From a virus, in the IMG/VR virus record IMGVR_UViG_3300030419_005136, positions 1 through 39,492 of that record: a stretch of DNA of 39,492 nucleotides; one strand, written 5' to 3'. The translations under genes were made by a program, and so were the position numbers. Shown here in pieces: positions 1 through 39,492 of this stretch; the first letter of the stretch is position 1, and each line of letters starts with the position of its first letter. The notes below the pieces were generated by a model that made no database searches, was not told where the DNA came from, and saw only the letters and a program-made list of their open reading frames with translations.

Positions 1-99
1 CCGCAATAGCACCGGCAATAGGCGCAGCGGCGCGGCGCAGCACGGCCAAACCTTGGCTAGTGGCGTTAACGTCTTGGTTAAACTGACGGCTACGGCGGG
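1..99. repeat. 99-bp terminal direct repeat, identical to 39394..39492; contig overlap of a circular molecule
   Basis: Bases 1-99 recur exactly at 39394-39492. The tape-measure reading frame runs through the junction in frame. Confidence 0.9.
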
Positions 100-223
100 A
101 GCCGCGGTCAAAGCCCTGGTTGAGCTTGCCCAGCTCGCTATCGGTCGCCCGTATTGCGCGAATGCCGCCGCTAGCGTCGCCGGTAATGATTAACCCTGTT
201 TTATGTTCGCGTCCACGGGACAT
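1..223 (-). CDS. 5' end of the tape measure gene (ATG at 223); continues across the circular junction into 39393..34733
   Basis: Minus strand reads gaggtgccgccATG then MSRGREHKTGLIITGDASGG...ATSQGLAVLRRAAAP with no stop. It is in frame with ORF 34733..39442 (223-49=174 nt). A GAGGTG SD lies upstream. Confidence 0.8.
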   Translation of the reverse strand, partial: MSRGREHKTGLIITGDASGGIRAIRATDSELGKLNQGFDRGSRRSRQFNQDVNATSQGLAVLRRAAAPIAGAIA

Positions 224-245
224 GGCGGCACCTCAAATAACGGGC

Positions 246-271
246 AAAAAAAATGCCCGCACTAGGCGGGC
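246..271 (-). terminator. intrinsic terminator after the moron, just upstream of the tape measure start
   Basis: Minus strand GCCCGC-ctagt-GCGGGC followed by A+T8. Confidence 0.7.
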
Positions 272-290
272 TCGGGCTTATCGTGAATTT

Positions 291-641
291 CTAGTATTGA
301 AAATGGTCTGAAATATAATGAATATCGCGGGTCAATCGCTCCTGACTTCGTATGTGTTGCTGCATGCGGACGTTATCTACTCCTAAAAACGCCTGATCAC
401 CGTCGCGCTGGAACCTCTCCATAAACGCATCCGAAAGAGGCTCATAACGTTCATCCAGATAACGGTGAAATACTTCACAGCGATCTGCACCACCACCACC
501 ACGAATTTCTCTACGGCAATTAGCTGCCAAGTCTCTCGCCATTTCGGTGGCAGCTTCATACTCAACGAACGTTACCCCTCCATACACGGGCAGCGCTGTA
601 CTAAAAAGAACCACTGATATTGCCAATAATCGCTTGATCAC
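291..641 (-). CDS. small secreted or periplasmic protein (moron gene 2), function unknown
   Basis: ORF 291..695. The likely start is GTG 641, giving the signal-peptide-like N-terminus VIKRLLAISVVLFSTALPVYG. The mature part has 2 Cys. G+C is visibly lower than in the flanks. The start codon is uncertain (GTG 695 is the alternative). Confidence 0.5.
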   Translation of the reverse strand: MIKRLLAISVVLFSTALPVYGGVTFVEYEAATEMARDLAANCRREIRGGGGADRCEVFHRYLDERYEPLSDAFMERFQRDGDQAFLGVDNVRMQQHIRSQERLTRDIHYISDHFQY

Positions 642-669
642 TTTCGCTAACCTACGTAATTGATGGTAT

Positions 670-972
670 TCAAATCGGCTTACCACAGTTATCACACGTT
701 TTGCGTCGGTCTGATACCTCCGCTTGGCAGCTTCTGCATACCACCCTACCGCCCGCTATCGGCGCGGCTTCCTGATTCGCCGCTTTAGAATTACTCACGG
801 CTGAAACAAGCATCCACACTGACCCAACAGCTACAACTAACGCCATCAAACCGCCAAAAATAACCAAGTGCAGGCCATAAACAGCCGCCAACGCTAAAGC
901 GACACCCAACAGCCAAGGCGCCAAGATCACCGCGATAATGACCAGCACCACAAGTATTAATATTTGCACCAT
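670..972 (-). CDS. small polytopic membrane protein with C-terminal CxxC...CxxC zinc ribbon (moron gene 1)
   Basis: ATG 972 with a GAGGTG SD. About 60 hydrophobic residues (2-3 TM helices) are followed by CRSCQAEVSDRRKTCDNCGKPI. G+C is low. Confidence 0.6.
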   Translation of the reverse strand: MVQILILVVLVIIAVILAPWLLGVALALAAVYGLHLVIFGGLMALVVAVGSVWMLVSAVSNSKAANQEAAPIAGGRVVCRSCQAEVSDRRKTCDNCGKPI

Positions 973-1028
973 TGCCCTTCACCTCTCACTGAACCAAAAG
1001 GCAACTTAGCGCACTTGGCCTGCATTGG

Positions 1029-1879
1029 CTACGCCACAAACGCCCCATCCCCATACCCAGCGGGCAGGTGCTGCACGTTCATCAGCTCCTGCGCGTTGAT
1101 ACGCTGCTGGCATTCCAGCTGATAGCTCAGCTCGGCGCGGGCGTCGATGGCCTGGGTGATTCGCTGCTGCTCTTCGGCCTCCTGCTGTGCCAGGGCGTGG
1201 TGTTCGTTCAGGGCGTCGAGCGCGCCCGCTTCTATGTGCTGCACCTGCGCCAGCAGGGCATCCTGTTCATCGAACCCCAGCCGGGCAAATTTGGGGTGTC
1301 CGTAGAGGGCGGTGTAGTCAATCCCCTGGTGATGGGCACCGCCCATGCCTGCGACCACGCGCCACTGGGTGCGCATGGCCAGAAACAGCTCCAGCGCTGG
1401 CCAGTGTTCCTCCCATACGCCGTAGGTTTCCGGCGCGGGAGCGCGGGGCTTGTTGCGCTGGATGCCCCACGCCTTGGCGTCTTCCTCGGTGTGGTCTTTA
1501 ATCGACCGGGCACCCGCCCACCACTGGCCAGCGCCGCTTAGTTTTTTGCAGCGGCCTGGCTGCGGCCTTCTTGGGCAGCGAACCAGGAGAGGATCAGCGG
1601 GCGGCGAATGTAGGTGGTTTGCATGAGCTGTTCTACCAGCTCTTTGTTGAACGGCATGTCGTTGCCGTTTTCGTCCTTGATGCCGCTCACGCTTTCCAGA
1701 TCGTCGAGCAACTCTTCGTCGTGTTTCTCTCCCTTCTGTTGCGCTTCGACCGTGGCGCGGTAGGTATCCCAGTCGTGCAGCTTCCACGTGGCTTGGATGG
1801 TGGAGGGCTTCTCTTCGCCCGGCACTTGAACAGGTACATCCACGGTGGTGGTGGGGATCTTTTTCAGCACTAATGACAT
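1029..1879 (-). CDS. tail assembly chaperone G-T fusion made by -1 programmed frameshift
   Basis: The G frame ends ...GCA AAA AAC TAA. The -1 frame continues KKLSGAGQWW... to the stop at 1029. The position between the major tail and tape measure genes matches lambda G/T. Confidence 0.7.
1538..1879 (-). CDS. tail assembly chaperone (gpG-like)
   Basis: A 113-aa acidic protein directly downstream of the major tail gene, ending at the slippery site. Confidence 0.75.
   Translation of the reverse strand: MSLVLKKIPTTTVDVPVQVPGEEKPSTIQATWKLHDWDTYRATVEAQQKGEKHDEELLDDLESVSGIKDENGNDMPFNKELVEQLMQTTYIRRPLILSWFAAQEGRSQAAAKN
1541..1547 (-). other. slippery heptamer A-AAA-AAC for the -1 frameshift
   Basis: Plus strand gtttttt at 1541-1547 is AAAAAAC on the minus strand in X-XXY-YYZ phase with the G frame. 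It lies immediately before the G stop codon. Confidence 0.7.
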
Positions 1880-1956
1880 GGTGTTTTCCTTGAAATGGGT
1901 AGGGGTAGAACAAACACGCCGCCCATTGGACGGCGTGGTGTGGCTGGTTGGTTGGG

Positions 1957-2904
1957 TTAGGTGAAGACGTATTTCACGTCGTCGTCGTTGCTGCCGGTGG
2001 GTAGGTAACGGATTTCCATGCCGTAGTGCATGATGCCTTGGTTGTCGCTGGGCGTGATGTTCGCGGCCTGCGCCTGCAGCCCTTCGGCTTTGATGATGTT
2101 GCCGGGGGTGGTGCCGTGAGTGAGCGCGACTGCGCCCAAGGTCACGCCCTGGTGGCTTTCGACTTTCTCGAAGGCGTTGAAGTCGGCCAGCGCGGGGGCT
2201 TCGATGGTGATGTTGCCCGTTACGCGGCGGTCGGTGATGTGAACGCCTTCGTAGCCGACGAGATTGCGGTATTCCACTTGGTTGCCTGCGTTTTGGCTAA
2301 ACGCTTGCAGGCGCGCCGGGTAGCCGAACAGGGTAAACGTGCTGTTCTGTTTGTTGATCGGAACCTCACCGGCCACGGTGCTTTCTGCGCCCTGCACAGT
2401 GGGGGCGTTTTGGGGGCGGCTGTAAAGGCCGGTGAGGTTGAACTGCCAGTACGGAAGGCTTTGGGCATCCGCGCCAACCTCGTAGGTGCCACGAGCGCCC
2501 CTAATCTCTTGCACTTGGCCATCTTCGTACCACCAGATTGTGACGCTATCCATGCCCTGAGAAACGGGCTGGTAGGTGACGCTTTCGCTACCAGTGGTGT
2601 TGTCGATGGTTTCCGACAGCGCACAGGCCCGCAATAGCGGGGAGTACGCGGGCGGCTCGCCAGCGGTACCGGAGCCGGAGAACGGCACGCGAATTTGGCG
2701 TTCAACGCTGGGGCCGGTGTTGATCTGCTCAAAGTTGCCGAAGCCGTAGCGCATGCGCTCACGCTCGACGGTGTTACCTGCGTAGGGGTTGCCTGCGTCC
2801 AGCATGACCACTTCTAGAATGGTGGCGGTGGCGGGGTCCGGCGCTACGCCGTACTGGGTTTCTACGGCCACCACGGCTAGGCGGCGTCGCCATTGCTTAC
2901 TCAT
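1957..2904 (-). CDS. major tail tube protein
   Basis: A 315-aa ORF with a GAGGT SD, located between the tail terminator and the G/T chaperones. The assignment is positional; I did not recognise the family beyond that. Confidence 0.65.
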   Translation of the reverse strand: MSKQWRRRLAVVAVETQYGVAPDPATATILEVVMLDAGNPYAGNTVERERMRYGFGNFEQINTGPSVERQIRVPFSGSGTAGEPPAYSPLLRACALSETIDNTTGSESVTYQPVSQGMDSVTIWWYEDGQVQEIRGARGTYEVGADAQSLPYWQFNLTGLYSRPQNAPTVQGAESTVAGEVPINKQNSTFTLFGYPARLQAFSQNAGNQVEYRNLVGYEGVHITDRRVTGNITIEAPALADFNAFEKVESHQGVTLGAVALTHGTTPGNIIKAEGLQAQAANITPSDNQGIMHYGMEIRYLPTGSNDDDVKYVFT

Positions 2905-3082
2905 TGGTATCTACCTCTTGCTTGGCCGCTGCCTTAGCGGGCTTGGGTGCTGCATCGGTTTTCACTGGCGCGGCGGGTTGCGTGTTTGCCTCCGTGGCGG
3001 GCTTTGCGGGCGCGGGCTGGGTGTTGTGCACGAGCACGCGCTTGCCGCCACGGATCTCGTAGCGGCCTCCTGCATTGGGCAT
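2897..3082 (-). CDS. small Lys/Ala/Pro-rich hypothetical protein
   Basis: ATG 3082 is preceded by GGAGGA. The 61-aa product is MPNAGGRYEIRGGKRVLVHN...KPAKAAAKQEVDTNE. It overlaps the major tail gene start by 8 nt. Confidence 0.4.
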   Translation of the reverse strand: MPNAGGRYEIRGGKRVLVHNTQPAPAKPATEANTQPAAPVKTDAAPKPAKAAAKQEVDTNE

Positions 3083-3100
3083 GGGGCTTCCTCCAGGCAT

Positions 3101-3123
3101 AAAAAAACCCGCACGCGGCGGGG
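3101..3123 (-). terminator. intrinsic terminator between the tail terminator gene and the small ORF/major tail gene
   Basis: Minus strand CCCGC-cgcgt-GCGGG followed by T7. Confidence 0.6.
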
Positions 3124-3142
3124 TGTTGGGTGGTGGTGATGG

Positions 3143-3541
3143 CTAATTGCGCAGCCAGGTGTCGGTGGTCCAGAACTCTCGCCACCAGATCAGCTCGCCG
3201 CGAATGTCGGTCGTTTGCCCACCCCGGTACTGCATCGGGTTGTGCTGGGGGCTAAAGCCGTGCCCCATCAGCGCCTCGCGCAGTGCTTGGCGCTGGGCTT
3301 TGAACTCGCTGCGCTTGCACACCAGCCAAATGCCGTAGGTCAGGCGCACTTCCTGCACTGGGCGCGTGGTCTGGGCATCGCCTTTGGCGGAATCCTCCGC
3401 AAAATAGGCCAGCGCGGCGGGGGTTTGGGCTTCGAAGTTGTCGATGGGGTCGGCAAACCACGCTTCTTGTACGGTGGCCATGCCTGGGCATTTGTCGCGC
3501 AAACGCGCCAGCAGGTCGTCGATAATGTCCGGGTCGGTCAT
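3143..3541 (-). CDS. tail terminator protein (gpU position)
   Basis: A 132-aa ORF whose size and order (after Z-like, before major tail) match lambda U. Its start forms an ATGA-type overlap with the upstream gene. Confidence 0.6.
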   Translation of the reverse strand: MTDPDIIDDLLARLRDKCPGMATVQEAWFADPIDNFEAQTPAALAYFAEDSAKGDAQTTRPVQEVRLTYGIWLVCKRSEFKAQRQALREALMGHGFSPQHNPMQYRGGQTTDIRGELIWWREFWTTDTWLRN

Positions 3542-4140
3542 GTTAGGCCTGCTTTGCGGTTGAGGATGTAATTCAGCCGGTCGTTAAACTGCTGGGGTAG
3601 GTCGTCGCGCACCAGCTCCTGCGCGGCTTCCATGACCTGCTGGTTACCGACCATTTCAGGGACTGATGGGCCAAAGCGCATTTCCGGGGTGCTTTTGTTG
3701 TCGTCCTTGTCGCTGCGGCGGTAGATGTGGTTTTTGGCCAACCAGCCACCCTGCACCAGCTGCCGCCCGCGATCCTTGCGCACTCGCACCGTCACGCCTC
3801 TACGGCGCGCCATGCTGCCCTTACGGGGGCCGCTTTGTACCCGCCGCTTGGAACTCACCGTCACCCAGCGCTCACGGGGCTTGAACTGCGCCAGCGGTAA
3901 CCGCCTGCCGGTGTAGAGAATCGCCCGCCCATCGCCACGGTCTAACCGCTGAATGCGTAGGCGCTTGCGAATATCCCCCGCGCTAATATCGTAACGCTGC
4001 CGGGTTTCCCGACTAATCAGCGTGGCCGCTTTGCGAGCGGTGGCGTTCACCGCCCAGCTCAGCGCTTTTTCTACGTCTTTGGGGTCGAACTGCTGTTTCA
4101 GCTCCTGCAGATCGCGCACATCAAATTGCAGGTTGGGCAT
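3538..4140 (-). CDS. minor tail protein Z-like (tail completion)
   Basis: ATG 4140 with a GGGGGAG SD. The 200-aa basic protein has an Arg/Lys-rich centre (...SSKRRVQSGPRKGSMARRRGVTVRVRK...), as in lambda gpZ. Confidence 0.6.
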   Translation of the reverse strand: MPNLQFDVRDLQELKQQFDPKDVEKALSWAVNATARKAATLISRETRQRYDISAGDIRKRLRIQRLDRGDGRAILYTGRRLPLAQFKPRERWVTVSSKRRVQSGPRKGSMARRRGVTVRVRKDRGRQLVQGGWLAKNHIYRRSDKDDNKSTPEMRFGPSVPEMVGNQQVMEAAQELVRDDLPQQFNDRLNYILNRKAGLT

Positions 4141-4156
4141 AACTCCCCCTTTGGCG

Positions 4157-4465
4157 CTACGACACCCACACTCGCCGCCACTGGCCATCGTCCTCTAACA
4201 CCTGCTGCACCCGCCACGTGCGATCCGGCAGCGCGACGGTATCGCCCTGCCGGGATTCCGGCACCCGCTCAACAGGCAACAGGATTGTGGCCACGCGCAT
4301 GGCCACTTGGTCCTGGTCGTAGACTTCGTGGCTTAGATCCAGCTGATACGGCACTTCCAGCAGCGCGGGGCCGCTGACGGGGGTGTAGGTGGCGGTGCCG
4401 TCGGTGAGACGATCCATAAAGACACGGTTAGCCCGCGCCGTAGCGCGGGCAAAGCGGCTGGCCAT
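4157..4465 (-). CDS. head-tail joining protein (gpFII-like)
   Basis: The C-terminal block RQGDTVALPDRTWRVQQVLEDDGQWRRVWV resembles lambda FII RRGDTLTIGEENFWVDRVSPDDGGSCHLWL. Confidence 0.6.
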   Translation of the reverse strand: MASRFARATARANRVFMDRLTDGTATYTPVSGPALLEVPYQLDLSHEVYDQDQVAMRVATILLPVERVPESRQGDTVALPDRTWRVQQVLEDDGQWRRVWVS

Positions 4466-4779
4466 TACTGCACCAACAGGAAGTCAGCAGTGCCGTTCGC
4501 CTCGTCTGCCGTTAGCTTGCCGCACGGGGTCGATCCTGCCGTACCATCGGCGACCAGCTCACCGGCCAGCACAGCCACTTTAGAGCCAGCAGTGAGGCCG
4601 TTAGCACAAGGAACGTTCCACACGCCGCCCGTGTGACCAACGAACGGCTCTCCGGCGGCGGCGTCATCCAGCGGCACGACCACTAGGTCGTTAATCGCTA
4701 CGGGGATGCCCGACAAAACGCCGCCAGCGGGGGCGATGAACGTAGGCGCGGAACCGCTTTGCACAAAATTCTTAGCCAT
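4465..4779 (-). CDS. DUF2190-like head protein (decoration or cement candidate)
   Basis: ATG 4779 with a GGAGGT SD. A 104-aa Gly/Ala/Val-rich protein immediately after the capsid gene. Confidence 0.5.
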   Translation of the reverse strand: MAKNFVQSGSAPTFIAPAGGVLSGIPVAINDLVVVPLDDAAAGEPFVGHTGGVWNVPCANGLTAGSKVAVLAGELVADGTAGSTPCGKLTADEANGTADFLLVQ

Positions 4780-4812
4780 GGGGTTTACCTCCAAGGGTTA
4801 ACAAGCGCCCAT

Positions 4813-4833
4813 AAAAAAACCGCTCAAGGCGGC
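4813..4833 (-). terminator. intrinsic terminator after the capsid gene
   Basis: Minus strand GCCGC-cttga-GCGGT followed by T7. The 21-nt string aaaaaaaccgctcaaggcggc is identical to 30134-30154. Confidence 0.55.
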
Positions 4834-4862
4834 TGATTATGGGCGGTGGATTGGCCTAGCGG

Positions 4863-6992
4863 TTATGCGCCGGGCATCTTAACGATGGTGCGGTACGACA
4901 TAGGCGCAACGCCTGCATCCATGCGCACCTTGAACACCGCACCATCTACCGTGAAGCCTTGCTGCTGCTCAAGGTAGGGCTGATCGTTGCCGTCTAGGTA
5001 AGCCACCTCAATGGTGTCATGCTGGCTGGGGTCCGCTACTAGGTAGCTATCTAATGCGCTTTGATCATCAAGGCGCGCATCGGAAATAACCTCTACCAAA
5101 TTGCGCACGGGGTTGGGTACTTTGGCCTCAGCCATAGCAGGGTCGTACTCAGCCGCCAGCAGCGCCTTAGCAGTGCTCTCCAGGCCCACCGGCACCAGTT
5201 GGTAAGCGGGGCGAATGTTGAGCACCGCGTTACCCTCTTTCTGCTTGCGCATCATCGTTTTGCCTTGGTCGTAGCGGGCAATCGACAACGCGCCAGCGCT
5301 GAGCTGGTTATTGTGGTCAGCGTGGAAGAGCGCTTTGCCATCGCTCATTTTCGGGTTACTTCCCAAAATGGCGTACACAAGATCACCCACCGTGCGAATC
5401 GCGGCGCGGCCCATCATGCGAGGGATGCGGGTAAACGCGCCGAGATCATCGTTGATAATCATCTGCCGGGTAATGCTCAGCAGCTCACCGTAGGTGGCCA
5501 GGGCGATCTTCTCTTTGCGGTCGCCCACGCTGGCGTACTTGTATTCCGCACCCTCGCGCACTTTGCGTAGGCTGGGGAACGAGGTCAGGTCGACGCGCTC
5601 CATTTCGCGGAAGTCGGGCAGCGAGCCGCGCGCCGTCCAGCGCTGGAACGTCTCTTCTGCCTCTTCGTAACCGCGCAGCATTTGACGGCGGGCCACGTCC
5701 GACAGGATGTTGCCAAAATCGCCCGTGGTGTGGGTGAAGGCCGCGCCCACCATGCCCATGACGTCGCCGCGATAGCTGGCAATACCAACGCCGTTATCGA
5801 CTAGATACGCCCGCGCCATTTCACGCAGCGACATACCCGCGTAGGCGTTGTCGCTTTCCAGCGTCTCCAGCTGCACACGGGCCGCTAGCGAGTTTTGCAG
5901 GCCGTCGCGCACGATGTTGCCGTTGCCCGCGTGAATGTGCGCGTCCGGGCGCGGCGGGGCGGTGGGCGTGGTGCCACTGCCCAATGCCTGCAGCAGCTTG
6001 TCCTTAGCGGCGGCGGCATCAATCGTAAAATCGTTCAGGCACTCTTGCTGCAGCGCTGCGTGAGTAGTGCCAAACGGGGCGAACACGGCGGCGACCGCTT
6101 GGCGGCGCTGCTGCTCTTCCTGCTGGAACTGCTCACGGGTGTAGCCTGCCGTCGGGACCGGGTTAGCCGGTGCCGGGTTAGCGGGCGCGGTGGGTGCAGC
6201 GCCAGAAGGAGCCGGGGCCGGTGCCGGGTTAGCCGGGGGACTGCTATTTTCAGGAGGCTGTGAATTGCTTTGCGCACGCGGTGCGATTAGGTTTTTGAGC
6301 TTCTCAGGCATTTGGTCAAACTCCTCAATTCGTTTTGAACTTAGCGATGCAGCTATTTTCAATGGCTGCATAAGTTGATCGGCAAAGCCATGCTCTACCG
6401 CTTGCGCTCCGTCAAGCCAGGTTGTTTCAGCCAGCATTTGATGAAGCTCATCTGCCGATTTTCCTGTTTTGGACGCATAGGCTGGAATAAATGTGTTTTC
6501 TACCAGGTCTAACAGCTTCGCGTATTCACGCATGTCATTAGCATTACCAACCTGCATTCCCCAAGGCTTATGGATCATCATGAATGCATTTTCAGGCATG
6601 ATGATCACATCACCCACCATCGCAATCACCGAGGCCATAGAAGCTGCAAGGCCTAGTATTTCCACCTCAATTCGAGCCGGGTGTTTCATCAGCTGGTTAT
6701 AAATATCAGTACCTTGAAAAACATCACCACCGCCGCTATGGATATATAGCTTGATTAGTGAAACGTTTTTCAGGGCATCAAGCTCTGCTTTGAAGTCTCT
6801 TGCAGTAAGCGCCCCCTCTCCTATTTCGTCATAAATCGCAATCTCAACAATGCCACTACCGCTTGCATTAATTTTGTACCAGTCGCCTTTTTTTACTGTA
6901 TCAATCGGCGTGGCTTTAGCTTTCGGTGCCAATAACAGGCTCCCGGTTAGCGCGGCGGGCAGCGCCTTGAGGGGGTGCGTTAGGTGATCCAT
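4863..6992 (-). CDS. prohead protease - scaffold/linker - major capsid protein fusion
   Basis: ATG 6992 with a GGGAG SD. The N-terminus is ClpP/S14-like (GLAASMASVIA, MIHKPWG). A Pro/Ala-rich linker follows. The C-terminus is Mu gpT-like capsid (IINDDLGAF, LFHADHNN). It is one uninterrupted 709-aa frame. Confidence 0.75.
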   Translation of the reverse strand: MDHLTHPLKALPAALTGSLLLAPKAKATPIDTVKKGDWYKINASGSGIVEIAIYDEIGEGALTARDFKAELDALKNVSLIKLYIHSGGGDVFQGTDIYNQLMKHPARIEVEILGLAASMASVIAMVGDVIIMPENAFMMIHKPWGMQVGNANDMREYAKLLDLVENTFIPAYASKTGKSADELHQMLAETTWLDGAQAVEHGFADQLMQPLKIAASLSSKRIEEFDQMPEKLKNLIAPRAQSNSQPPENSSPPANPAPAPAPSGAAPTAPANPAPANPVPTAGYTREQFQQEEQQRRQAVAAVFAPFGTTHAALQQECLNDFTIDAAAAKDKLLQALGSGTTPTAPPRPDAHIHAGNGNIVRDGLQNSLAARVQLETLESDNAYAGMSLREMARAYLVDNGVGIASYRGDVMGMVGAAFTHTTGDFGNILSDVARRQMLRGYEEAEETFQRWTARGSLPDFREMERVDLTSFPSLRKVREGAEYKYASVGDRKEKIALATYGELLSITRQMIINDDLGAFTRIPRMMGRAAIRTVGDLVYAILGSNPKMSDGKALFHADHNNQLSAGALSIARYDQGKTMMRKQKEGNAVLNIRPAYQLVPVGLESTAKALLAAEYDPAMAEAKVPNPVRNLVEVISDARLDDQSALDSYLVADPSQHDTIEVAYLDGNDQPYLEQQQGFTVDGAVFKVRMDAGVAPMSYRTIVKMPGA

Positions 6993-8487
6993 TCTCTTTA
7001 CTCCCGTAATGGTCGTGGTAGGGGTCTGAGCTGAACACCAGCCCTTTTTCGCGGTTCTCTTTAATCTCCGCTTCACGGCTCTTTTTCAGCTCTTGGGGGT
7101 TACGGCCACGGGCGCGGGCTACTTCGGCCTCATCGGCAAAGCCTGCGGCTACCAACTCTTCCCATGCGCGCGCTTCGTGCTGCGGGTTAATCCATGGCAT
7201 TACCGGACCTAGGTAAAACGCGTTGTAGAGCGTGCGTTCGTCCAGATCCGGCGGCAGGGCAATATCACCGTTCAATACAGCCATGCTTAATGCGCTGCGG
7301 TAGACGCGACGGCACCAACCGGCGATAAACTCATCCTGTAGCAGTTCATAGCCAAGCTGGGCTTCCACCAGCTCTTGGCGCTGTGCGCTGTAGGTGCCGT
7401 CGTAATCCCGCGACCACGTAGACGCCCCGCCCCGCGTACCGGCGGCAACGGCTTTGATCATCGCGCCCCGGAACCCTTCGACCAGGGCGTTAGGGCGGTT
7501 CGATTCGATCATGCCCACGTCTTCACCGGGCAACAGGCCGTCGAACGTCATTCCCGGCGCGATGGGTATTTGCCGGGAACCTGGGGGCAGGTTGCTATTG
7601 CTGCTGTTGTTGCCCGCCTGAGTGGGGTCGGTGAATGTGGCCGGGTCGCCTTTCTTGATATACATCGTCATCGCTGCCGCAATGCGGGCCGCTACGCGCT
7701 CTGACTCTTCGTAATCCTTTAGATCGGCTAGCCGGGTAATCACCGAGTGCAAAATGGTGATACCCCGGCTCTGCTGTAGGCGCTTGCGGTGGGCGAGGTG
7801 AATCATTCGCTCCGCTTCGACGCGCTTGGTATTCAACAGCCAGCCGCGCATGTCGCCGGGGTGGCTTTTGTAAATGTGGTAGGCCCGCACGCGCCGCCAT
7901 TCGTTGCGCTCGATCCCGGCAAAGATGCCCCGCTTTGGGTCGTCTGCATCTAGTGGAAGGTAATCCGCTTCTAGCAGCTCTAACGCGTAGGGCGTGGCCG
8001 TTAGGTACTGATAGCTAGGGATACGCCCACGCAGCTCTTGGGCTAAAACCTCACCATCACGCAGCCAGCTACGGCAGACCAAGCGCTCCATTTGCGGGCG
8101 GGTTAGCTCGCCGGTGGTTTCCGGGTGCAGCGACCACTCGGCCCACCACGTTTTAATTTGCGCGGCCAACTCGTTCAGGCGGTTGCCCGAACGGTCTAAC
8201 GGTATCGGCTCAATGCCGATGCCATCCGCACCCACAACGCGCTCTTCCAGACGGTCCAGAATACCCGTGACTAAATCATGGTTTTCATCCAGATAGCGGG
8301 CCTGCTCACGCAGTGAGCGCCCGGCCAGCTGAACCGCCATGTCCGCGCTTTTGGCTTCGCCCTTGGCCTTGTGCAATCGGCTAGGGGCGGCAGCTTCATA
8401 GGCGTAGATCATTTGCCGGGCGGCTAAGCGCTGAGCCACGCGACCGGGGGCGAACGGCTCTAGGGCTTTGTCGATCCAGTTTTTCAT
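6916..8487 (-). CDS. portal protein (lambda gpB type)
   Basis: A 523-aa ORF between the gpW-like gene and the protease. ATGA overlap with the gpW-like gene. The N-terminus MKNWIDKALEPFAPGRVAQRLAARQ is typical of lambda-type portals. Confidence 0.8.
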   Translation of the reverse strand: MKNWIDKALEPFAPGRVAQRLAARQMIYAYEAAAPSRLHKAKGEAKSADMAVQLAGRSLREQARYLDENHDLVTGILDRLEERVVGADGIGIEPIPLDRSGNRLNELAAQIKTWWAEWSLHPETTGELTRPQMERLVCRSWLRDGEVLAQELRGRIPSYQYLTATPYALELLEADYLPLDADDPKRGIFAGIERNEWRRVRAYHIYKSHPGDMRGWLLNTKRVEAERMIHLAHRKRLQQSRGITILHSVITRLADLKDYEESERVAARIAAAMTMYIKKGDPATFTDPTQAGNNSSNSNLPPGSRQIPIAPGMTFDGLLPGEDVGMIESNRPNALVEGFRGAMIKAVAAGTRGGASTWSRDYDGTYSAQRQELVEAQLGYELLQDEFIAGWCRRVYRSALSMAVLNGDIALPPDLDERTLYNAFYLGPVMPWINPQHEARAWEELVAAGFADEAEVARARGRNPQELKKSREAEIKENREKGLVFSSDPYHDHYGSKENGSPNAPPQGAARRANREPVIGTES

Positions 8488-8693
8488 AGGAACCTCACAA
8501 AGCCAGGGCCACCGGATGCGCCACGGCTACGCTCTAGCGCCAGCTTACGCTCCCACTCTTGCCGCCCTTGGCGTATGGCGGGCAGGTCTACCATGGTGAG
8601 CGTTCTGCCATTTTGGGTAACCGTGCGGCCCTCTAAAACGTCGCGCTCTGCCTGAATGTAAAAATCAAGCATCTGCTGGGCGGTGTAGCTCAT
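8484..8693 (-). CDS. head-tail connector gpW-like
   Basis: 69 aa (lambda gpW is 68 aa). The C-terminus GGPGFVRFL resembles lambda RGPAGFYV. ATGA overlaps on both sides. Confidence 0.7.
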   Translation of the reverse strand: MSYTAQQMLDFYIQAERDVLEGRTVTQNGRTLTMVDLPAIRQGRQEWERKLALERSRGASGGPGFVRFL

Positions 8694-11189: not shown

Positions 11190-11308
11190 AACAACAACCT
11201 CCCCCCAGAAAAAACTCGTACATACGCAAATTCCGCGACTGATTCCCCCCGTACTCTAGGGGGTGGGGTCGGGAGTACCTTTTTATTTTTCTGCACCGCG
11301 TTGGTGCA
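11190..11308. other. candidate cos region (cosN/cosB) upstream of the Nu1-like gene
   Basis: The location matches lambda cos (between the lysis genes and Nu1). GTACTC (11251-56) and GAGTAC (11273-78) are inverted and flank a G-rich 16-mer, with A/T tracts on both sides. No ends are visible in this permuted contig. Confidence 0.3.
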
Positions 11309-11581
11309 TTACTCGGCCTGCCGGTTGCGGAAGATCAACGCGACGGCGCGGCGGTCGGCATTGAAGCGGATGCGCAGGGCTTCGTAGTCGGCTAGCAGCT
11401 GCAGCAGGTCGCGGTTGGTGTGGATCTCTCGAACGGGTGCGGGGCGTGGCTCAGTCAGGAACCACGGCAGCGCTTGGGGTGTCGGCTCCGCTGGTGTCGG
11501 GGCGGGTGAGGCGGCGCACCCAATCAGCAACGCCGATAGGCACAGGCTGGCCAGCCCACGCCCTAGAATCTGAATCCGCAT
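11309..11581 (-). CDS. o-spanin (Rz1-like outer-membrane lipoprotein)
   Basis: Signal peptide with lipobox LLIGC and a Pro-rich mature part. It starts inside the i-spanin gene and extends beyond it (overlapped architecture). Confidence 0.75.
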   Translation of the reverse strand: MRIQILGRGLASLCLSALLIGCAASPAPTPAEPTPQALPWFLTEPRPAPVREIHTNRDLLQLLADYEALRIRFNADRRAVALIFRNRQAE

Positions 11582-12610: not shown

Positions 12611-12634
12611 AAGCAATCACCAAATCGCAGACAT

Positions 12635-33302: not shown

Positions 33303-34736
33303 TTAGCCCCACAGTTGCAGTGTCAGTTCTTGGTTTTCGGCGTTGAGCCGGTAGCCGGTCACGCGCATAGCGCGGCCTGCGCCGTAGCCCAGCCGGGGAG
33401 TGGTGGGCGTCACGCTACCGCCCACGGTGGGCGTGAGGGTTTCGCGGGCCTCGATCTCGACGGTATCCCGCCGCACGCTGAGCAGCGCTAGCACGCGGTT
33501 GGCGACTTGCTGGGCGATGGCGCGATCAGTGAGCCGTGATTGAATCGTTAGCTCCCCTGCCAGCGGGTGCCGGTCGCGCACGGCTTGGGCGCTGGCGATA
33601 ACGCGGCGATAGGGTTGCGCCACGCGGGCGCGTCGCTCGTCGCTAACGTTGCCCGCCAGGTCGTCTTGAACCGTGCCGTTGGGGTCGTATTCGACGGTGA
33701 CGCGCCACACTGGCAGCCCGTTTTCACCCGCGCCGGTACTACTGCGGGTGATGCTGCTCATGCTGTAAGGGTGAATGGCGTTGTTGTTGGGCTCGGGTTC
33801 CAGCCACTCGCCCATACGCAGATCACCCTCAGCGGGTGATGTAAGGTAACCGCCGATGCTCTCGGCCAGTTCGTCTAACAGGGTGAGCGTGTCCGTATCG
33901 CTGTTGAGGTACACGCTCACGGCCCCGAAAGCATTCAGTGTGGTCACATCATCAGCGTGCAGCGTGTAGCCGCGCTCGGCTGCCAGCGCGGCGGCGACGG
34001 TGCCCAGCGTGGGCGTGGCTTGCTCGGCATCCACCGTTACCGTACCCACTGGGCTTGCCCCTAGGCGGAAATACCCCTGATAGTGCCGGTACTGGCCCGC
34101 TGCTGGTGCGGTGCTTTGCAGCTGGGCTATGTCGGTGTAAGTGCCGCCGTTCGTCAGCGCCACGCCACGGTCATACACGGCGGTTACGTTGCAGTCAGCA
34201 AGCGACGACACTTGGTAAATCAATTTGCTGGTGTTGACCAACACCGGCTGAGCGTTGCGTACCCGGCCCCACACCTGAGGCTTGGGCTCGCCCGCTATGT
34301 CGTCCTCAGTGCCTTCCACGCCATCCGGAAGCACGTTGTCCCCAGCGTAAACGTCCATCGGTTGCGGGCTGCGCAGTGGTTCTAAAGGGTCTCGCAAGAT
34401 CACGCCCACTTCGTTCTCACGAAACGCGAGCCGGGAGACGGTACCCACCACCTGCAGCTGTTCGTCAAACCTCAGCTGCATGGTGCGACCGTCTACGGCG
34501 TAATCGGCTAGATAGTCCAAGGCGCCGTCGCTGTTCTCAAGCGTGGTTTCGCCGTGGCCGCTGCGCCCCTGTTGCAGTAGTTGGCCCGCGTATAAACCCG
34601 CTTGATACAAGCCTGGTTGCAACATGCGCGGATCATAAAACGCATCGTCCGGGGCGTCGTAACGCCCCAGGCTAAAGCGCAGGGTTTCCGGCTCATTGGC
34701 GGCATTCAGCGCTTCAACGGTGAGGGTCCATGTCAT
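33303..34736 (-). CDS. distal tail protein (first gene after the tape measure)
   Basis: ATGA overlap with the tape measure stop. 477 aa. The assignment is positional. Confidence 0.5.
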   Translation of the reverse strand: MTWTLTVEALNAANEPETLRFSLGRYDAPDDAFYDPRMLQPGLYQAGLYAGQLLQQGRSGHGETTLENSDGALDYLADYAVDGRTMQLRFDEQLQVVGTVSRLAFRENEVGVILRDPLEPLRSPQPMDVYAGDNVLPDGVEGTEDDIAGEPKPQVWGRVRNAQPVLVNTSKLIYQVSSLADCNVTAVYDRGVALTNGGTYTDIAQLQSTAPAAGQYRHYQGYFRLGASPVGTVTVDAEQATPTLGTVAAALAAERGYTLHADDVTTLNAFGAVSVYLNSDTDTLTLLDELAESIGGYLTSPAEGDLRMGEWLEPEPNNNAIHPYSMSSITRSSTGAGENGLPVWRVTVEYDPNGTVQDDLAGNVSDERRARVAQPYRRVIASAQAVRDRHPLAGELTIQSRLTDRAIAQQVANRVLALLSVRRDTVEIEARETLTPTVGGSVTPTTPRLGYGAGRAMRVTGYRLNAENQELTLQLWG

Positions 34737-37700
34737 CGTTTCGCCGCCTCCAACCGTGCGTCATCTTCCAGTTTTTTCAGCATCTTGTTGCCTTCTTTAG
34801 TAGCGGCAATCTGCTGTGTGGCAGCGGCTCCGCGCTGGTTGTTGGCGGCTGCTAGGTGGGTGTTGCTGTCATTGAGCAGGCGCTCGATAGTTTTGCCCTG
34901 CTGTTCTATCGTGCGCTGCATGTCGCGCATTACCTGCGTTACATCGCTCTTACCCAGCAAGGGGAATTGTGGCATGGGAGGTAGTTCGGCACGCACGCCC
35001 AGCGAGCCATTGCTATGGCGAGTTAACGGCATAATCGCTTCATCACCGCTTTCACCCATTAAGCCCATGTCAAACAACGTGGGTGATGAAACGATGCTAT
35101 TAGTGAACACGCCGCCCTTGGCGAATTTGCGGCCTTCGTCTATACCGTGAAGCAAGAAGTGTTGAAAGCCGCTATAGACCTCGCCGCGGCCTATAGCCTC
35201 TGCGATGTCCGGGTTTAGTCTCAGGTAGTTAGCCTCGTCAAAACCCACAGCTGAAATCAGCTTGTCTACGTTGTTTCTAGCAACGGAAGGTGCGAGCGAT
35301 CCTGAGTTAAAGTCGCCTGCTAGAGAGCGGGAAAACGCTCTTTGCGAGCTATCGCCCCTCATGGTTTGTTTTAAAAACGAGAAATTATCGCTAGCATCAA
35401 CCAGTGAAGTTACTTGCGATCTAGTCAAAGTTTTTCCGGCAGGCTGACTAGGCGATGTGTCAATATCGGAGCCGCCACCAGAGCTAAACTCAAGATTTCT
35501 AATGGCCTTTTCAATTTCAGCCAACGCCCCAATCTGACGAACCATGTAGTTCTGGTTGCCACTCCCGCCGAAGAACTCCGCGAACGTCTGTGCTAACGGC
35601 ACTTGCTTCGCCAGCGGCCCCGCTAAACCAGTGTTGGTGGCAACGTTCTTGAGTTGATCGACCATTGCCTGTAGCTGCGGGTCGATGTCCTCTAGTTCAT
35701 CGCTACCTAAACGGCTCGCTAAATCATCTAGACTGCCCTCTACGAGTGCCTGTGCCTGCTGATAGATATTCCCGCTGGCACCGTATGCCTCGGCAGCGTT
35801 CAAATACTGCTGAGCGATGCCGGTAATACCGCTGATCGTGTCCTGTACCAGCGCGCTATCATCGCTGGTGTAGATCGTTGAGATGGCGGCCAGGAATGAC
35901 TCTTCAGCATTCTGATACGCCGTTTCGGGTGAGACGCCCGCGCCGCCGGTATTCTGCAGCGACTCGACAAACTGGCGGATGTTCTGCCCGGCGCTCATCA
36001 TGGTCCGCGCTTCTTGCTCTAACGCACGGATGCGCTCTTGTTGTGCGCGCTCCGCTTCTTGCATTGCGGCGCGCTCGTCCTCAATGGCCCAGATGCGCTC
36101 TTGCAGGGGGCGATTGCTTTCTGCTAGTTGAGATAACTCATAATCACGCAGTGCGTTGGCATTCCCTTGCACGCGTAGTAGCTGCAGCTCTAACTGAGTG
36201 CGCTCACGCATTGCATCCGCGCCACCGATGGCAGCAACGCTAGCCGCTTCCGCAGAGTTCGCAATGTTCCATAGAGCGCCATCAAGCGTCAGTGAACCAG
36301 AGGCTACCCGATCAAACCAATACTCAAGGCCAGCAGTATCCGGCGCACGGCCTAGCTCGCTCTGATACGCCTGCTCAATCGCTTGGCGTACCGCCGCGTT
36401 GGTTTCGCGCAACGCCGGGGCAAGCTGCATCAGCTGATACGCTAGTTGACCTCCGGCCTCTGTATTAAGGTCTTGCGCTTCGACTAGGGTACGCAGGCCC
36501 GCAACAGTGGTCGGCACTTCATCCGTGACGTTGGATAGCGAGCTGTAGAGATCTAACTGGGCGTTGCTTAGGCGCTCGGTTTCGGTGAACGCGGCGTTGT
36601 AATACGCCTGATTCACGGCAGCGATGTTATCCAGCCCGCCGACGTAGTCAGACAAGCCGGCGGCGGCATTGAGCGCTCCTTCTGCGCTGGCGTCGAATTG
36701 CAGGTTGAGGCGAGCGCTATTGCTGTCGAGGAGTTGCATCGCGTTAGCGGCCTGCACCACGCGCCCGGTGATTTGCTCGGCATCCAGCCCCAGACCGCGC
36801 AAGGCGGCGGAAAAATCACCGTCGATAACGTCAACGACAGCCAACGTGCGCGTAGCGAGCTGGTTAGCGATCCCGGCGGCGTCGCTGGCGTTCAAGCGCA
36901 CAGCCTGGGCGGCGCTGGCCATGGCCTGCGTTTTCTCTGCGCCGTTATCTAGGTTGGCGGCTGCCCCCACCAGGGCGTTATCTAGCGCGGTGATGCCGTC
37001 TAAAAACGCCTTGGCGTTATCGAAGCCGTCGAACGTTTCTTCCAAACGGGCAGTGTTAGGGTCATAAAACCCTACGGTGCCCAGCGCGCCACGGCTGTAG
37101 ACGCCCTCTCCATAGTTCTCAAACAGCCCGTGCCGGGTGGGGTCTACGTCCTGCCCTACGGTAGCTAGCTCGAATTTAGGGGCGGTTTTGCGGCCACCGA
37201 ACAGGCCGCTAATTCCGCCCACGATGCCGTCAACGATGCCCAGCCCGAGCACGTTATCAACCAGCGCCCCACCTGCTAGCCACGGCATTGCGGCGCTGGC
37301 AGCGCTCATAAAGCCGCCGGAGGCGGTGGTTGCCGCACCAGTTAGGGCATTGCCGTAAAGGCCACCCACGGCAGCGCCCGTTGACGCGCCCGCGTACAAG
37401 CCGCCCGCTGCCGCGCTGCCCGTGAGCGCATTGGCGTACAAACCACCCGCTGCAGCACTTGAACCGCCAAAACCTAGCGCACTACCGGCGCTACTAATGG
37501 CATCGCCTATATAGGGGAGATTGGTAGCGCCGGTGTAGAGCGAGCCTAGCGAGCTGAGGTTGAAGCCGCCGCCACCCCCACCGGGCATGCCGGCGGTATC
37601 CAGCCCCATCATGCCCGCCACATGGAAAGTCAGGCGCTGGGTAGTGAGCATGTGAGCGATTTCTGCCAGCGTTTGCTGGAAACCGCGTTTGACGGTATCC

Positions 37701-39492
37701 AGCGCGCTTTCAGAACCGTCGATCAAGCCTAGCCACAGGCTTTGGCCGGAATCATCAATACGGCGCAGGGTGTTATCCGCGACGGTTTCCCAGCTAAGGA
37801 AGCTGTTGGCGATGCGCTGGCTGGCGTCTTCTGAGGCGGTGGCGGTGTTTTCTGCTTCCCGCTGCGCTGCTTGAAACGACTCCTGCAGCATGCCCATGGC
37901 CTGCATGTACTGCACGGCATTGATGCGGCCCGTGGCCAGGGCCAAATTCAGCGTGCCCACGTCCTGCGCGTACTGCCGCGCGGCGCGGCGGTTGGGCTGA
38001 ATGCGGTCTAGCAGGTTTTCGTAGCTGTTGGCGAGGGTGGTGGTTTGTTTGGCGGCGTCACGGGATGCGGCGGCGGCGGTGTTGGTGGATGCACTGGCAG
38101 CATCCGCAGTGACTACTATGTCTTCAAGCGCCTGAGCACCTGCGCGGTCGGCGCTAGTGGCCTGCTCTCTCGCTTCTCGGTTTTTGCGTATAGCTGTTTG
38201 CAGCTCGACTTGACGAGCCCACAGGTCTGCCAACGCTTCTGTTTGTTGATCCACTGCACCAGACACACTATCTGCCATGCCTTGGTGTGAGTTTTCATAG
38301 AATGCTTGGCGAGCTTCCAGTTCTGTTAGCTGCGCCATGGCTTCTTGAGCCTGCAGCGAAACAGCCTCAAGAGAGTTAATTAGGTTGTCGTACGTGGCAT
38401 CCAGGGCAGCGGCAGAACCGTCACGTATAGCGGCGCTATTATCATCCAGTGCAATAGTTGCGTTTTTTGCTGCTGCATCGACAAAGCCAAGTTCTTCGCG
38501 GAAATAGAACAATGAGCCAACCGCTATCACAGCTGCGCCAGCTGGCCCACCCACTAACGTTAACGCCCCAGAAACACCACGGACTGAAGCGGCTAACGCG
38601 GTTTGGCTGGCGACCACAGTCGTACTAACGCCCGCCATGCGCGCCAGCGCCATTTGATAGGCGATAGACTGCTGGGTAGCCGCCAGTTTTGCCGCCGTAG
38701 CGGTGGCAAACGCGCCCGCGTAGCGGCCTGCCAGCAGTGCGGCAAGCACTTGAGCGCCATCGGTGAGGTGGCCAACCACCACCTCTGCTCCGCCAACCTC
38801 TTGGATAAACGCATTGACGTTTTGTAGCCCTGCCGTAATCGCAGGCACTAGCTCAGAAAGCAGTGTTTGGCTGACACCTTGCGCGGCAAACTTTAGGCGA
38901 TCGACTTCATCGTTATAGCTTGCCATGGCGTTGGCGGTGTCTTGACTGATCGTTAGGCCCAGCGCGTCAGCCTCCGCGCGCATGGCAGCAATGGCATCAG
39001 TGCCGCTGTTGACGATCTGCACCAGTTTCACGCCTTCACTATCCCAAAGCTGCTGTGCAAGGCGCACCCGCTCACTGCTGTTTTCCACGCCTTGCATGGC
39101 TTCCGCAATGCGTTCGAACTGGTCTTCTGGGGCCAGTTGGTTCAGCTCTTGGGCACTAAGGTTGAGGCGATCCAGCGCCGCAACCGCAACACCAGTGCCT
39201 GCAGCGGCTTCGGCAATGCGGCGGGTTTGGCGCTGCCATGCCGTCGTTAGCTGGTTGAACTCGACGCCAGAGAGGCTGGCGACGTAGTTGTACTGGCTCA
39301 GCGCTTCCGTGCTGGCACCAATCCGCAGGTTGGTTTTCTGTAGCTGGTCGCCCCAGTTGATCTGGTTTTGCAGCGAGTTAGCCGCAAACATGCCCGCAAT
39401 AGCACCGGCAATAGGCGCAGCGGCGCGGCGCAGCACGGCCAAACCTTGGCTAGTGGCGTTAACGTCTTGGTTAAACTGACGGCTACGGCGGG
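34733..39492 (-). CDS. tape measure protein, body and 3' end (5' end is at 223..1 across the circular junction; total 1627 aa)
   Basis: A long Ala/Gln-rich helical protein with a Gly-rich hydrophobic centre. The C-terminus GGVFTNSIVSSPTLFDMGLMGESGDEAIMPL is typical of lambda-like gpH. The track start at 39442 is a TTG inside the frame. Confidence 0.85.
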   Translation of the reverse strand, partial: RRSRQFNQDVNATSQGLAVLRRAAAPIAGAIAGMFAANSLQNQINWGDQLQKTNLRIGASTEALSQYNYVASLSGVEFNQLTTAWQRQTRRIAEAAAGTGVAVAALDRLNLSAQELNQLAPEDQFERIAEAMQGVENSSERVRLAQQLWDSEGVKLVQIVNSGTDAIAAMRAEADALGLTISQDTANAMASYNDEVDRLKFAAQGVSQTLLSELVPAITAGLQNVNAFIQEVGGAEVVVGHLTDGAQVLAALLAGRYAGAFATATAAKLAATQQSIAYQMALARMAGVSTTVVASQTALAASVRGVSGALTLVGGPAGAAVIAVGSLFYFREELGFVDAAAKNATIALDDNSAAIRDGSAAALDATYDNLINSLEAVSLQAQEAMAQLTELEARQAFYENSHQGMADSVSGAVDQQTEALADLWARQVELQTAIRKNREAREQATSADRAGAQALEDIVVTADAASASTNTAAAASRDAAKQTTTLANSYENLLDRIQPNRRAARQYAQDVGTLNLALATGRINAVQYMQAMGMLQESFQAAQREAENTATASEDASQRIANSFLSWETVADNTLRRIDDSGQSLWLGLIDGSESALDTVKRGFQQTLAEIAHMLTTQRLTFHVAGMMGLDTAGMPGGGGGGFNLSSLGSLYTGATNLPYIGDAISSAGSALGFGGSSAAAGGLYANALTGSAAAGGLYAGASTGAAVGGLYGNALTGAATTASGGFMSAASAAMPWLAGGALVDNVLGLGIVDGIVGGISGLFGGRKTAPKFELATVGQDVDPTRHGLFENYGEGVYSRGALGTVGFYDPNTARLEETFDGFDNAKAFLDGITALDNALVGAAANLDNGAEKTQAMASAAQAVRLNASDAAGIANQLATRTLAVVDVIDGDFSAALRGLGLDAEQITGRVVQAANAMQLLDSNSARLNLQFDASAEGALNAAAGLSDYVGGLDNIAAVNQAYYNAAFTETERLSNAQLDLYSSLSNVTDEVPTTVAGLRTLVEAQDLNTEAGGQLAYQLMQLAPALRETNAAVRQAIEQAYQSELGRAPDTAGLEYWFDRVASGSLTLDGALWNIANSAEAASVAAIGGADAMRERTQLELQLLRVQGNANALRDYELSQLAESNRPLQERIWAIEDERAAMQEAERAQQERIRALEQEARTMMSAGQNIRQFVESLQNTGGAGVSPETAYQNAEESFLAAISTIYTSDDSALVQDTISGITGIAQQYLNAAEAYGASGNIYQQAQALVEGSLDDLASRLGSDELEDIDPQLQAMVDQLKNVATNTGLAGPLAKQVPLAQTFAEFFGGSGNQNYMVRQIGALAEIEKAIRNLEFSSGGGSDIDTSPSQPAGKTLTRSQVTSLVDASDNFSFLKQTMRGDSSQRAFSRSLAGDFNSGSLAPSVARNNVDKLISAVGFDEANYLRLNPDIAEAIGRGEVYSGFQHFLLHGIDEGRKFAKGGVFTNSIVSSPTLFDMGLMGESGDEAIMPLTRHSNGSLGVRAELPPMPQFPLLGKSDVTQVMRDMQRTIEQQGKTIERLLNDSNTHLAAANNQRGAAATQQIAATKEGNKMLKKLEDDARLEAAKR
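39394..39492. repeat. second copy of the 99-bp terminal repeat
   Basis: Identical to bases 1-99. Confidence 0.9.

Follow-up and report, generated by a model that had tools for sequence, protein, structure and literature searches.

Introduction

In lambda-type phages, the tail assembly chaperone gene T is followed by the gene for the tape measure protein (TMP), and gene 15 of phage HK97, which occupies the slot between the G-T chaperone genes and the TMP gene, was the first element to be named a moron. Its product, gp15, is an inner-membrane protein that mediates superinfection exclusion; the gene itself is low in G+C, is absent from relatives, and lies at the same position as the genes considered here (PMC3594210). 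In the current study, we examined two open reading frames (ORFs), designated ORF A and ORF B, that lie between the chaperone and TMP genes in IMG/VR virus record IMGVR_UViG_3300030419_005136 (minus strand, positions 291 to 972 of the 39,492 nucleotides [nt] analyzed, hereafter the window). These two genes very probably have the anatomy of a moron. The window derives from a temperate siphophage of the Halomonadaceae, and its cargo slot spans positions 224 to 1028.

A second type of exclusion protein is Ltp, which is encoded by temperate phages of Streptococcus thermophilus and lactococci; its target is the TMP of the incoming phage, and ltp genes sit in the lysogeny module, not in the tail operon. 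Ltp of phage TP-J34 is a prophage-encoded, helical protein that is located outside the cytoplasm and blocks DNA injection (PMC3952083). Small inner-membrane proteins that halt genome entry after adsorption include SieA of P22 and Imm and Sp of T4 (PMC3594210; PMC10883804). Finally, recent work has revealed host and prophage defenses that target TMPs (PMC13190303, PMC10884400).

Comparison with known exclusion systems

In HK97, the T stop codon lies at 8145, gp15 is encoded at 8203 to 8391, a terminator follows at 8398 to 8422, and the TMP gene begins with an ATG at 8435. The window shares both the slot and this layout: in each phage, a small ORF begins about 57 nt past the T stop and is followed by a terminator, with the TMP ATG some 12 to 23 nt further on. 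The preliminary description of this DNA, made from the sequence alone, had pointed to gp15 as occupying a comparable junction, and the published record bears this out for both position and function (PMC3594210). Both gp15 and ORF A are small inner-membrane proteins with a cytoplasmic tail (for ORF A, this topology is a prediction). They differ in build, however; gp15 has 62 amino acids (aa) and a single span, whereas in the 100 aa of ORF A a hydrophobic module of 57 residues is combined with a zinc ribbon. Moreover, unlike HK97 gene 15, the locus in the window has a second gene, the product of which is predicted to be periplasmic. Comparison of ORF A with gp15 and YebO yielded a BLASTP E value of 0.16 over 10 residues, an hhalign probability of 2%, and no match to the YebO family in Pfam. 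Judged from these comparisons, HK97 gp15 is a positional analogue of ORF A and not a homologue.

SieA, Imm, and Sp are unrelated to ORF A in sequence, are encoded at other genome positions, and lack the conserved module of ORF A. For ORF B, the closest functional model is Ltp, with which it shares a predicted helical structure and a predicted location outside the cytoplasm. However, Ltp is lipid anchored, whereas ORF B has no lipobox cysteine and is predicted to be soluble, and searches with ORF B, by fold as well as by sequence, returned no meaningful match of any kind.

Composition and selection

Two extra ORFs had been described between the chaperone and TMP genes, and we found every element of the locus where it had been placed on the minus strand (Table 1). 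Extra genes between these neighbors of the lambda-type order are one hallmark of a moron; another is a composition that differs from that of the neighbors. The G+C content of positions 291 to 972 is 48.7%, compared with 58.3% for the genome as a whole, and ranks in the lowest 2% of equal-size windows; the hand counts reported earlier for two single lines were exact (41.7% for 301 to 360 and 68.3% for 1141 to 1200). G+C at third codon positions is 0.54 in ORF A and 0.41 in ORF B, versus 0.73 to 0.79 in G, T, and the tube gene. When ORF A and ORF B were compared with their homologues in related phages, dN/dS was 0.09 to 0.14 for ORF A and 0.05 to 0.10 for ORF B, with synonymous sites near saturation in both cases; by this measure, both are true genes under purifying selection.

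Genes for an integrase and a CI-like repressor mark the phage as temperate. Among cellular sequences, those closest to its T protein come from prophages of Vreelandella (Halomonas) lionensis and Vreelandella nanhaiensis, and a scan of genome contigs yielded only two Vreelandella prophages, each with a large and different cargo. A DNA search with positions 1 to 2400 found no match among GenBank phages.

The T-TMP junction as a cargo hotspot

Exact-protein look-ups, pattern scans, and local tblastn together yielded about 25 distinct loci in which T is 60 to 97% identical to that of the window; the TMP N terminus, where reached, is mostly 64 to 91% identical (only 35% in L068). Across these loci the junction is never empty and seldom alike. 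The combination seen in the window, ORF A plus ORF B, is found in L001-8, while A alone is carried by L009-12 and L014-17 and B alone, with an intact signal peptide that had been cut short in the gene calls, by L013, L019, and L022. In L021, B is accompanied by an antirepressor-like gene and a gene for a 217-aa protein. In L034-36, 2 to 5 kb of further genes are followed by a Cys-rich 75-aa ORF and then A, and in L035 this arrangement continues into a gene for a 125-aa secreted protein. Other occupants include the Cys-rich ORF with a 139-aa lipoprotein (L063), a 208-aa membrane protein (L068), and a 3.5-kb insert whose last gene encodes a secreted protein of 151 aa (L024, from V. nanhaiensis).

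Cargo other than the A and B types ranges from 0.47 to >4.8 kb. The larger examples contain isrK and C4 antisense RNAs (identified with Rfam) together with an antirepressor, as well as Fic/Doc, a HEPN-like protein, a weak PIN-like match, an ImmA-like peptidase, and an RNase T/BRCT exonuclease. In every variant where it could be read, the gene proximal to the TMP gene encodes an envelope-targeted protein. Junction G+C is about 49 to 50% in the six short-cargo variants measured and 45 to 56% in the others, and is always lower than that of the upstream flank. With at least eight different cargo sets in this slot within a marine phage lineage, the T-TMP junction is, on the basis of gene content, a hypervariable accessory-gene hotspot. 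In relatives with a T protein of 60 to 97% identity, the slot contains either of the two genes by itself or unrelated cargo, which argues that ORF A and ORF B are dispensable for tail assembly. The comparison of gene order suggested in the preliminary description therefore shows variable slot content, not a set of genes conserved as essential for tail assembly, and the proposal of a low-GC moron has held up well; the two genes are extra to the lambda-type order and horizontally mobile.

In the Halomonas meridiana prophage Phm3, the chaperone is encoded by ORF61 and the TMP by ORF67 (PMC11131426), which would place five genes in the same slot; that article also contains strand-specific RNA-seq data from the lysogen (BioProject PRJNA416452). 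We considered whether the B-only loci might be deletion derivatives of A-plus-B loci, and alignment gave this no support. The Cys-rich ORF (75 to 76 aa; VAEYCRECS...LCEGCGD...) recurs ahead of either ORF A or a lipoprotein gene (5789 to 6016 in L034-36 and 3635 to 3865 in L063), and it overlaps the start codon of ORF A. A family of secreted proteins with the motif ...PGRSVPWVD... takes the TMP-proximal place in L035 (6410 to 6787), L024 (9451 to 9906), and L023 (8100 to 8933), and represents an alternative to ORF B as cargo.

ORF A and its family

ORF A has no charged residue in positions 1 to 62 and is hydrophobic from residue 4 to residue 60, and its tail contains seven K/R against four D/E residues along with four cysteines. 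The earlier account of a 100-aa hydrophobic protein with a four-Cys C terminus stands, except that the cysteines are spaced CxxC-x10-CxxC rather than with 12 residues between the pairs. We infer that ORF A is a small inner-membrane protein with two or three predicted spans. Its tail would face the cytoplasm, given the positive-inside rule and the reducing environment that a zinc site requires. The match to the Pfam family Zn_Ribbon_1 (PF13240) scores 24.2 bits, just below the 25-bit cutoff (E value of 2.8e-5); among 42 family members, 27 to 30 reach an E value of ≤0.01 against Zn_Ribbon_1 or DZR, and some members lack the ribbon. A sequence search of the PDB with ORF A returned weak zinc-ribbon matches only, and tblastn of A and B against GenBank phages gave no match, with the low-complexity filter masking the membrane part of A.

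A profile search retrieved 61 relatives of ORF A (65 to 156 aa) from metagenomes, Marinobacter, and several Pseudomonas species, annotated, where named at all, as hypothetical or "zinc ribbon domain-containing." The family is near invariant over roughly its first 35 residues (MQxAILVVLxxIAVILAPWLxGV...A.YG); what follows varies and may be a ribbon only, a coiled coil and a ribbon, or a coiled coil only. In 15 of 16 IMG/VR loci, the family member lies 30 to 110 nt upstream of an ORF of >1000 aa. The sixteenth is L035, where a 125-aa ORF stands between the two and the contig ends 532 aa into the downstream ORF. At one of these loci the identity of the neighbors was confirmed, with TMP_3 and Tape_meas_lam_C domains downstream and a lambda-type T upstream. 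Across the IMG/VR loci the tail genes are of several types, too diverged to be recognized as related. The same order is seen in lambda-like prophages of Pseudomonas aeruginosa, where T (PF06223) is followed by A and then by the TMP gene (PF20155), and in the unrelated siphophage L018, where A likewise lies upstream of the TMP gene. From these surveys, members of the family are nearly always found as a promoter-ORF-terminator cassette just upstream of a TMP gene.

Two exceptions to this adjacency were found. In one, the family member lies downstream of an RNase T/BRCT gene, a gene type that is itself junction cargo in V. nanhaiensis. The other is a Marinobacter island with integrase, AlpA, and D5 primase genes, which indicates that the family can act without a TMP gene in cis. 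This island (L025-27, at about 6900 to 14600) encodes the integrase, AlpA, a D5 primase-helicase, and a helix-turn-helix (HTH) protein and has the look of a P4-like satellite, with the ORF A homologue (P0017) at its accessory end.

One possible reading of the adjacency is that A, and perhaps B, is intrinsic to the phage and coupled to the TMP, being made late in infection to assist or control the phage's own tape measure. It might, for instance, keep hydrophobic TMP segments off the membrane during assembly, prime the next injection, or stop progeny from injecting into the dying cell. The position of A directly upstream of a long TMP-type ORF in 15 of 16 IMG/VR loci and in the P. aeruginosa prophages, across unrelated tail modules, speaks for such a role, as does the sense orientation of the genes inside the late operon. 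However, A is absent from L013, L019, and L022, in which T and the TMP N terminus are 70 to 80% identical to those of the window. In the P. aeruginosa phages PP9W2 and vB_PaeS-D14Q, a gene for an unrelated lipoprotein of the SmpA/OmlA type replaces A in the slot, although these phages match the prophages that carry the A homologue (P0053) at about 94 to 97% DNA identity on both sides of it. The lipoprotein belongs to a different family, and its alternation with an ORF A homologue argues that the slot exchanges envelope proteins. Given also that the A family has its own promoter motif and terminator, and that the Marinobacter island homologue occurs without tail genes, we consider a TMP-coupled role quite unlikely.

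ORF B and its family

ORF B begins with GTG and, as had been noted, encodes about 116 aa with an N-terminal signal peptide, in which K/R residues are followed by a hydrophobic stretch. The signal peptide accounts for some 22 residues and the mature part for about 94. Public gene calls (P0001) give the same 116-aa protein. A 134-aa version starting from the GTG at 695 was rejected; it overlaps ORF A, and relatives conserve a start and a ribosome-binding site equivalent to those at 641. AlphaFold2 models ORF B as a three-helix bundle (helices at residues 25 to 48, 53 to 85, and 90 to 114) with a pLDDT of 84.6 overall and >90 in the helices. An invariant cysteine pair, C42 and C55, flanks the first turn and probably forms a disulfide that staples the bundle. 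From these features, ORF B is predicted to be a Sec-exported, soluble periplasmic protein. No lipobox was found in the signal peptides of the family, most of which contain no cysteine at all.

The family is small. A profile search of 1.84 billion representatives yielded only 13 clusters; the eleven small clusters that we retrieved contain proteins of 88 to 116 aa with the same cysteine pair, and all but one truncated sequence have a signal peptide. A PDB sequence search with ORF B returned no match, a fold search with the model returned generic three-helix bundles at E values of >1 only, and the sole good match in BFVD is the identical protein, which is unannotated. Relatives at 38% identity occur in Mu-like phages, where they lie between mor and genes for an M15 endolysin and a holin. 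The presence of ORF B in different variable slots of different phage types points to an independently mobile gene. A and B had been proposed as a functional pair. Each is found without the other and in other contexts, and we therefore abandoned both this idea and its stronger form, an obligate two-component system.

The neighbors of the Mu-like relatives bring a further explanation into view, in which A is a membrane-disrupting effector, either holin-like or an abortive-infection protein that would kill the infected cell once triggered, and B is a periplasmic regulator of lysis. Apart from the distant relatives of ORF B that adjoin endolysin and holin genes, the long, uncharged hydrophobic module of ORF A would suit such a role, and there is a weak match of ORF A to phrog_8269. 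This match (E value of 0.015) is not significant, however, and the lysis cluster of the window, around the lysozyme gene at 12417 to 11773, is far from the slot. Moreover, no partner antitoxin or sensor is conserved beside A, and A and B occur independently. We find this explanation very unlikely.

Terminators, leader, and promoters

The intrinsic terminator at 271 to 246, ahead of the TMP ATG at 223, is strong, as originally described. It is not peculiar to the two genes, however, as had been supposed; the motif GCCCGCC-loop-GCGGGC plus T run is kept in all variants whatever their cargo, with variation in the loop alone, and the terminator therefore belongs to the backbone of the junction and not to the cassette in the window. 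In the window, the stem at 271 to 255 reads GCCCGC-CTAGT-GCGGGC, and the A and T8 that follow run on to 246. In most relatives, irrespective of cargo, the TMP ATG is immediately preceded by the leader TGCCCGYWATTTGAGGT, which is slightly altered in L014, L036, L063, and L068.

Tandem terminator units were found in 7 of the 13 junctions examined (7362 to 7438 in L009, 3424 to 3504 in L014, 516 to 594 in L022, and also in L034, L036, L063, and L068). Each unit is about 42 nt long and consists of the hairpin, a T run, and TGCCCGYWAYTTRA; the single terminator of the window looks like a fusion of units 1 and 2 (TGCCCGTTATTT plus GAGGT). The repeated unit may serve as the recombination joint for cargo exchange. 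The late operon contains four strong intrinsic terminators, of which that in the slot is one. The TMP gene can therefore be reached only by late transcripts that pass through them, which implies dependence on antitermination or graded read-through; no antiterminator gene was identified. In HK97, terminators are similarly arranged around the tail genes. We also considered, and rejected, a riboswitch-like alternative fold for the terminator together with the leader of the TMP gene (z-score of only -1.1); in the minimum-free-energy fold, the 3′ arm of the terminator pairs with a downstream GCCCG.

Upstream of ORF A, the -35-like element of a candidate promoter overlaps the T stop codon. Within the 56-nt spacer, which is otherwise variable, the block GTGCGCTAAGTT is conserved in three diverged loci that carry A; it is absent where another cargo gene precedes A (L034-36). 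The candidate lies at the distance at which other family members carry the extended -10 motif TGnTAnnnT, which is degenerate in the lineage of the window. Among loci outside that lineage, the motif (mostly TGnTAGAKT) was present 31 to 41 nt upstream of the start of the ORF A family gene in 15 of 15, namely, 14 of 14 scored by script plus L040 by eye. Against a background frequency of 0.00025 per nt, about 0.007 occurrences would be expected in a 30-nt window. In the P. aeruginosa prophage L028, the spacer carries TGGTAGATT. At the other end of the cassette, all 14 A-to-TMP spacers examined contain one or two G+C-rich hairpins with a T run. Such an arrangement is the classic layout of a moron, and its spacing agrees with that of HK97 gene 15 almost to the base. 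In the window itself, A and B are most likely cotranscribed, being 28 nt apart with no terminator between them.

Proposed function

We tentatively favor superinfection exclusion as the function of A and B, by analogy with the systems described above. A and B would be transcribed together in the lysogen from the weak promoter at about 1003 to 1031, with transcription ending at 271 to 246. A would then insert into the inner membrane and B would enter the periplasm, and both could interfere where the TMP of an incoming siphophage opens the path for DNA, that is, at the periplasm/inner-membrane step. The exclusion step is modeled on that of HK97 gp15, acting from the same genomic position.

Several of our results weigh against exclusion or the anatomy on which it is based. 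The candidate promoter in the window is weak, and a consensus scan of positions 1 to 12500 found no sigma-70 consensus site. The genes are sense oriented within the late operon and so are certainly transcribed late as well, and the Mu-like relatives of ORF B have no apparent separate promoter, which fits lytic-cycle expression. No match to a defense family was obtained for these proteins in PADLOC, NCBIfam, or Pfam. AlphaFold2 renders ORF A as one continuous helix (residues 2 to 65) plus a small beta ribbon (pLDDT of 82, pTM of 0.32), and with this single long helix the topology of ORF A is not settled. A phage-intrinsic role tied to the TMP could instead account for members of the A family so nearly always adjoining its gene. 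Finally, since none of the approximately 25 junctions of the lineage is empty, insertion is deduced from the replacement of one cargo by another, not from presence versus absence.

Alternatively, the genes could serve lysogenic conversion in a manner unrelated to phage entry, their products altering a trait of the host such as its stress tolerance, its surface behavior, or its resistance to tailocins or bacteriocins. The bor and lom genes of lambda are conversion genes that encode envelope proteins; both proteins of the window also appear to be targeted to the envelope, alternative occupants of the slot include lipoproteins such as SmpA/OmlA, and the cargo in relatives is functionally mixed. 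On the other hand, searches of Pfam, PHROG, and NCBIfam revealed no similarity to known conversion factors, and conversion of this kind leaves the positional link between the A family and the TMP gene unexplained. We therefore regard it as unlikely.

A broader and more speculative version of the idea, which strikes us as somewhat unlikely, is that the T-TMP junction is a dedicated "entry-defense" slot in many unrelated siphophages. The A family would then be an unrecognized superinfection exclusion family and the most widespread occupant of the slot; its near-invariant transmembrane module would jam a conserved step of TMP-mediated DNA entry at the inner membrane, and its variable cytoplasmic tail, with a zinc ribbon, a coiled coil, or both, would tune specificity. 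On the periplasmic side, ORF B and other occupants that are secreted or are lipoproteins would act on the same pathway of entry.

An element of this kind is already known from HK97 gene 15, and in that respect the basic finding is not surprising. What is new is the existence of a true slot hotspot in a marine phage lineage; an unannotated A family that keeps to the TMP position, equipped with a promoter motif and a terminator of its own, and ranges over phages of the Halomonadaceae and Pseudomonas (including P. aeruginosa prophages) with a homologue in a Marinobacter island; and the finding that the TMP-proximal slot gene encodes an envelope protein wherever it can be read. Should the proposed block to entry be true, it would provide a simple positional rule by which to find new exclusion genes and a testable way into the events at the inner membrane during siphophage DNA injection, which are poorly understood, and it would be relevant to the prediction of prophage-mediated resistance in work with P. 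aeruginosa phages.

Features of the window and additional observations

The features on which the analysis is based are collected in Table 1. T is reached by a -1 frameshift from G and ends at a stop codon at 1031 to 1029, which is the upstream boundary of the cargo slot; its C terminus (...GYGDGAFVA, then stop) is kept in relatives.

Table 1. Coordinates of features in and around the cargo slot
Feature	Position	Strand	Remarks
TMP gene, first 74 codons	1..223	-	ATG at 223
TMP leader	224..246	-	TGCCCGTTATTTGAGGTGCCGCC, GAGG ribosome-binding site within; downstream boundary of cargo slot
Intrinsic terminator	246..271	-	6-bp all-G:C stem, 5-nt loop, then A+T8
ORF B, 116 aa	291..641	-	GTG start
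Spacer, ORF A to ORF B	28 nt	-	No hairpin
ORF A, 100 aa	670..972	-	
Spacer, T stop to ORF A	56 nt	-	
Candidate ORF A promoter	1003..1031	-	-35-like TAGCCA (1031-1026), 17-nt spacer, -10-like TAAGTT (1008-1003)
T part of G-T (DUF1799)	1029..1541	-	PF08809, E 1e-13; phrog_680, E 6e-21
G (tail assembly chaperone, 113 aa)	1538..1879	-	ORF; weak Phage_TAC_4 and PHROG tail matches
Slippery heptamer A_AAA_AAC, end of G	1547-1541	-	Read from sequence
Strong late-operon terminators	4834-4818, 3122-3108, 1937-1915	-	After capsid gene and on both sides of tube gene
Tail tube gene	2904-1957	-	PF18906
Lysozyme gene, within lysis cluster	12417-11773		About 11 kb from slot
Tyrosine integrase	14126-12858		
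CI-like HTH+S24 repressor	17412-18065		
TMP gene, remainder	34733..39393	-	PHROG tape-measure families, E 4e-32

An exact direct repeat of 99 nt at the ends (1 to 99 and 39394 to 39492) indicates that the assembly of the window is circularly closed, with a length of 39,393 bp. The reading frame of the TMP runs from position 1 across the circular junction into 39393 to 34733, giving a full-length protein of 1627 aa; the same 1627-aa TMP is called on L001 and on near-identical contigs of 38 to 39 kb from many marine metagenomes. The terminal repeat falls inside the TMP gene, and plain joining of the ends creates a false tandem duplication of 33 aa.

Other islands of low G+C content (45 to 49%) lie at 6161 to 7163, 21281 to 22153, 24701 to 26543, and 30311 to 31603. 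The first of these lies at the overlap of a 737-aa protease-capsid ORF with the portal ORF, and the third covers a gene for a GNAT acetyltransferase (25877 to 25365) and adjoins a serine resolvase gene (26524 to 27171). On the plus strand, positions 19685 to 20854 encode a protein of the RdgC family that carries an FtsK-gamma domain at its C terminus (E values of 4e-85 and 5e-9), an unusual fusion in the early region. Also on the plus strand, a C4 antisense RNA (22124 to 22211; Rfam, 66.7 bits) lies directly upstream of an ORF6N antirepressor-like gene at 22243 to 23040, an arrangement that resembles the immI-type module of P1 and P7. A combination of isrK, C4, and an antirepressor occurs within the T-TMP junction of L024, L034-36, and L055, which suggests that this module moves between sites.

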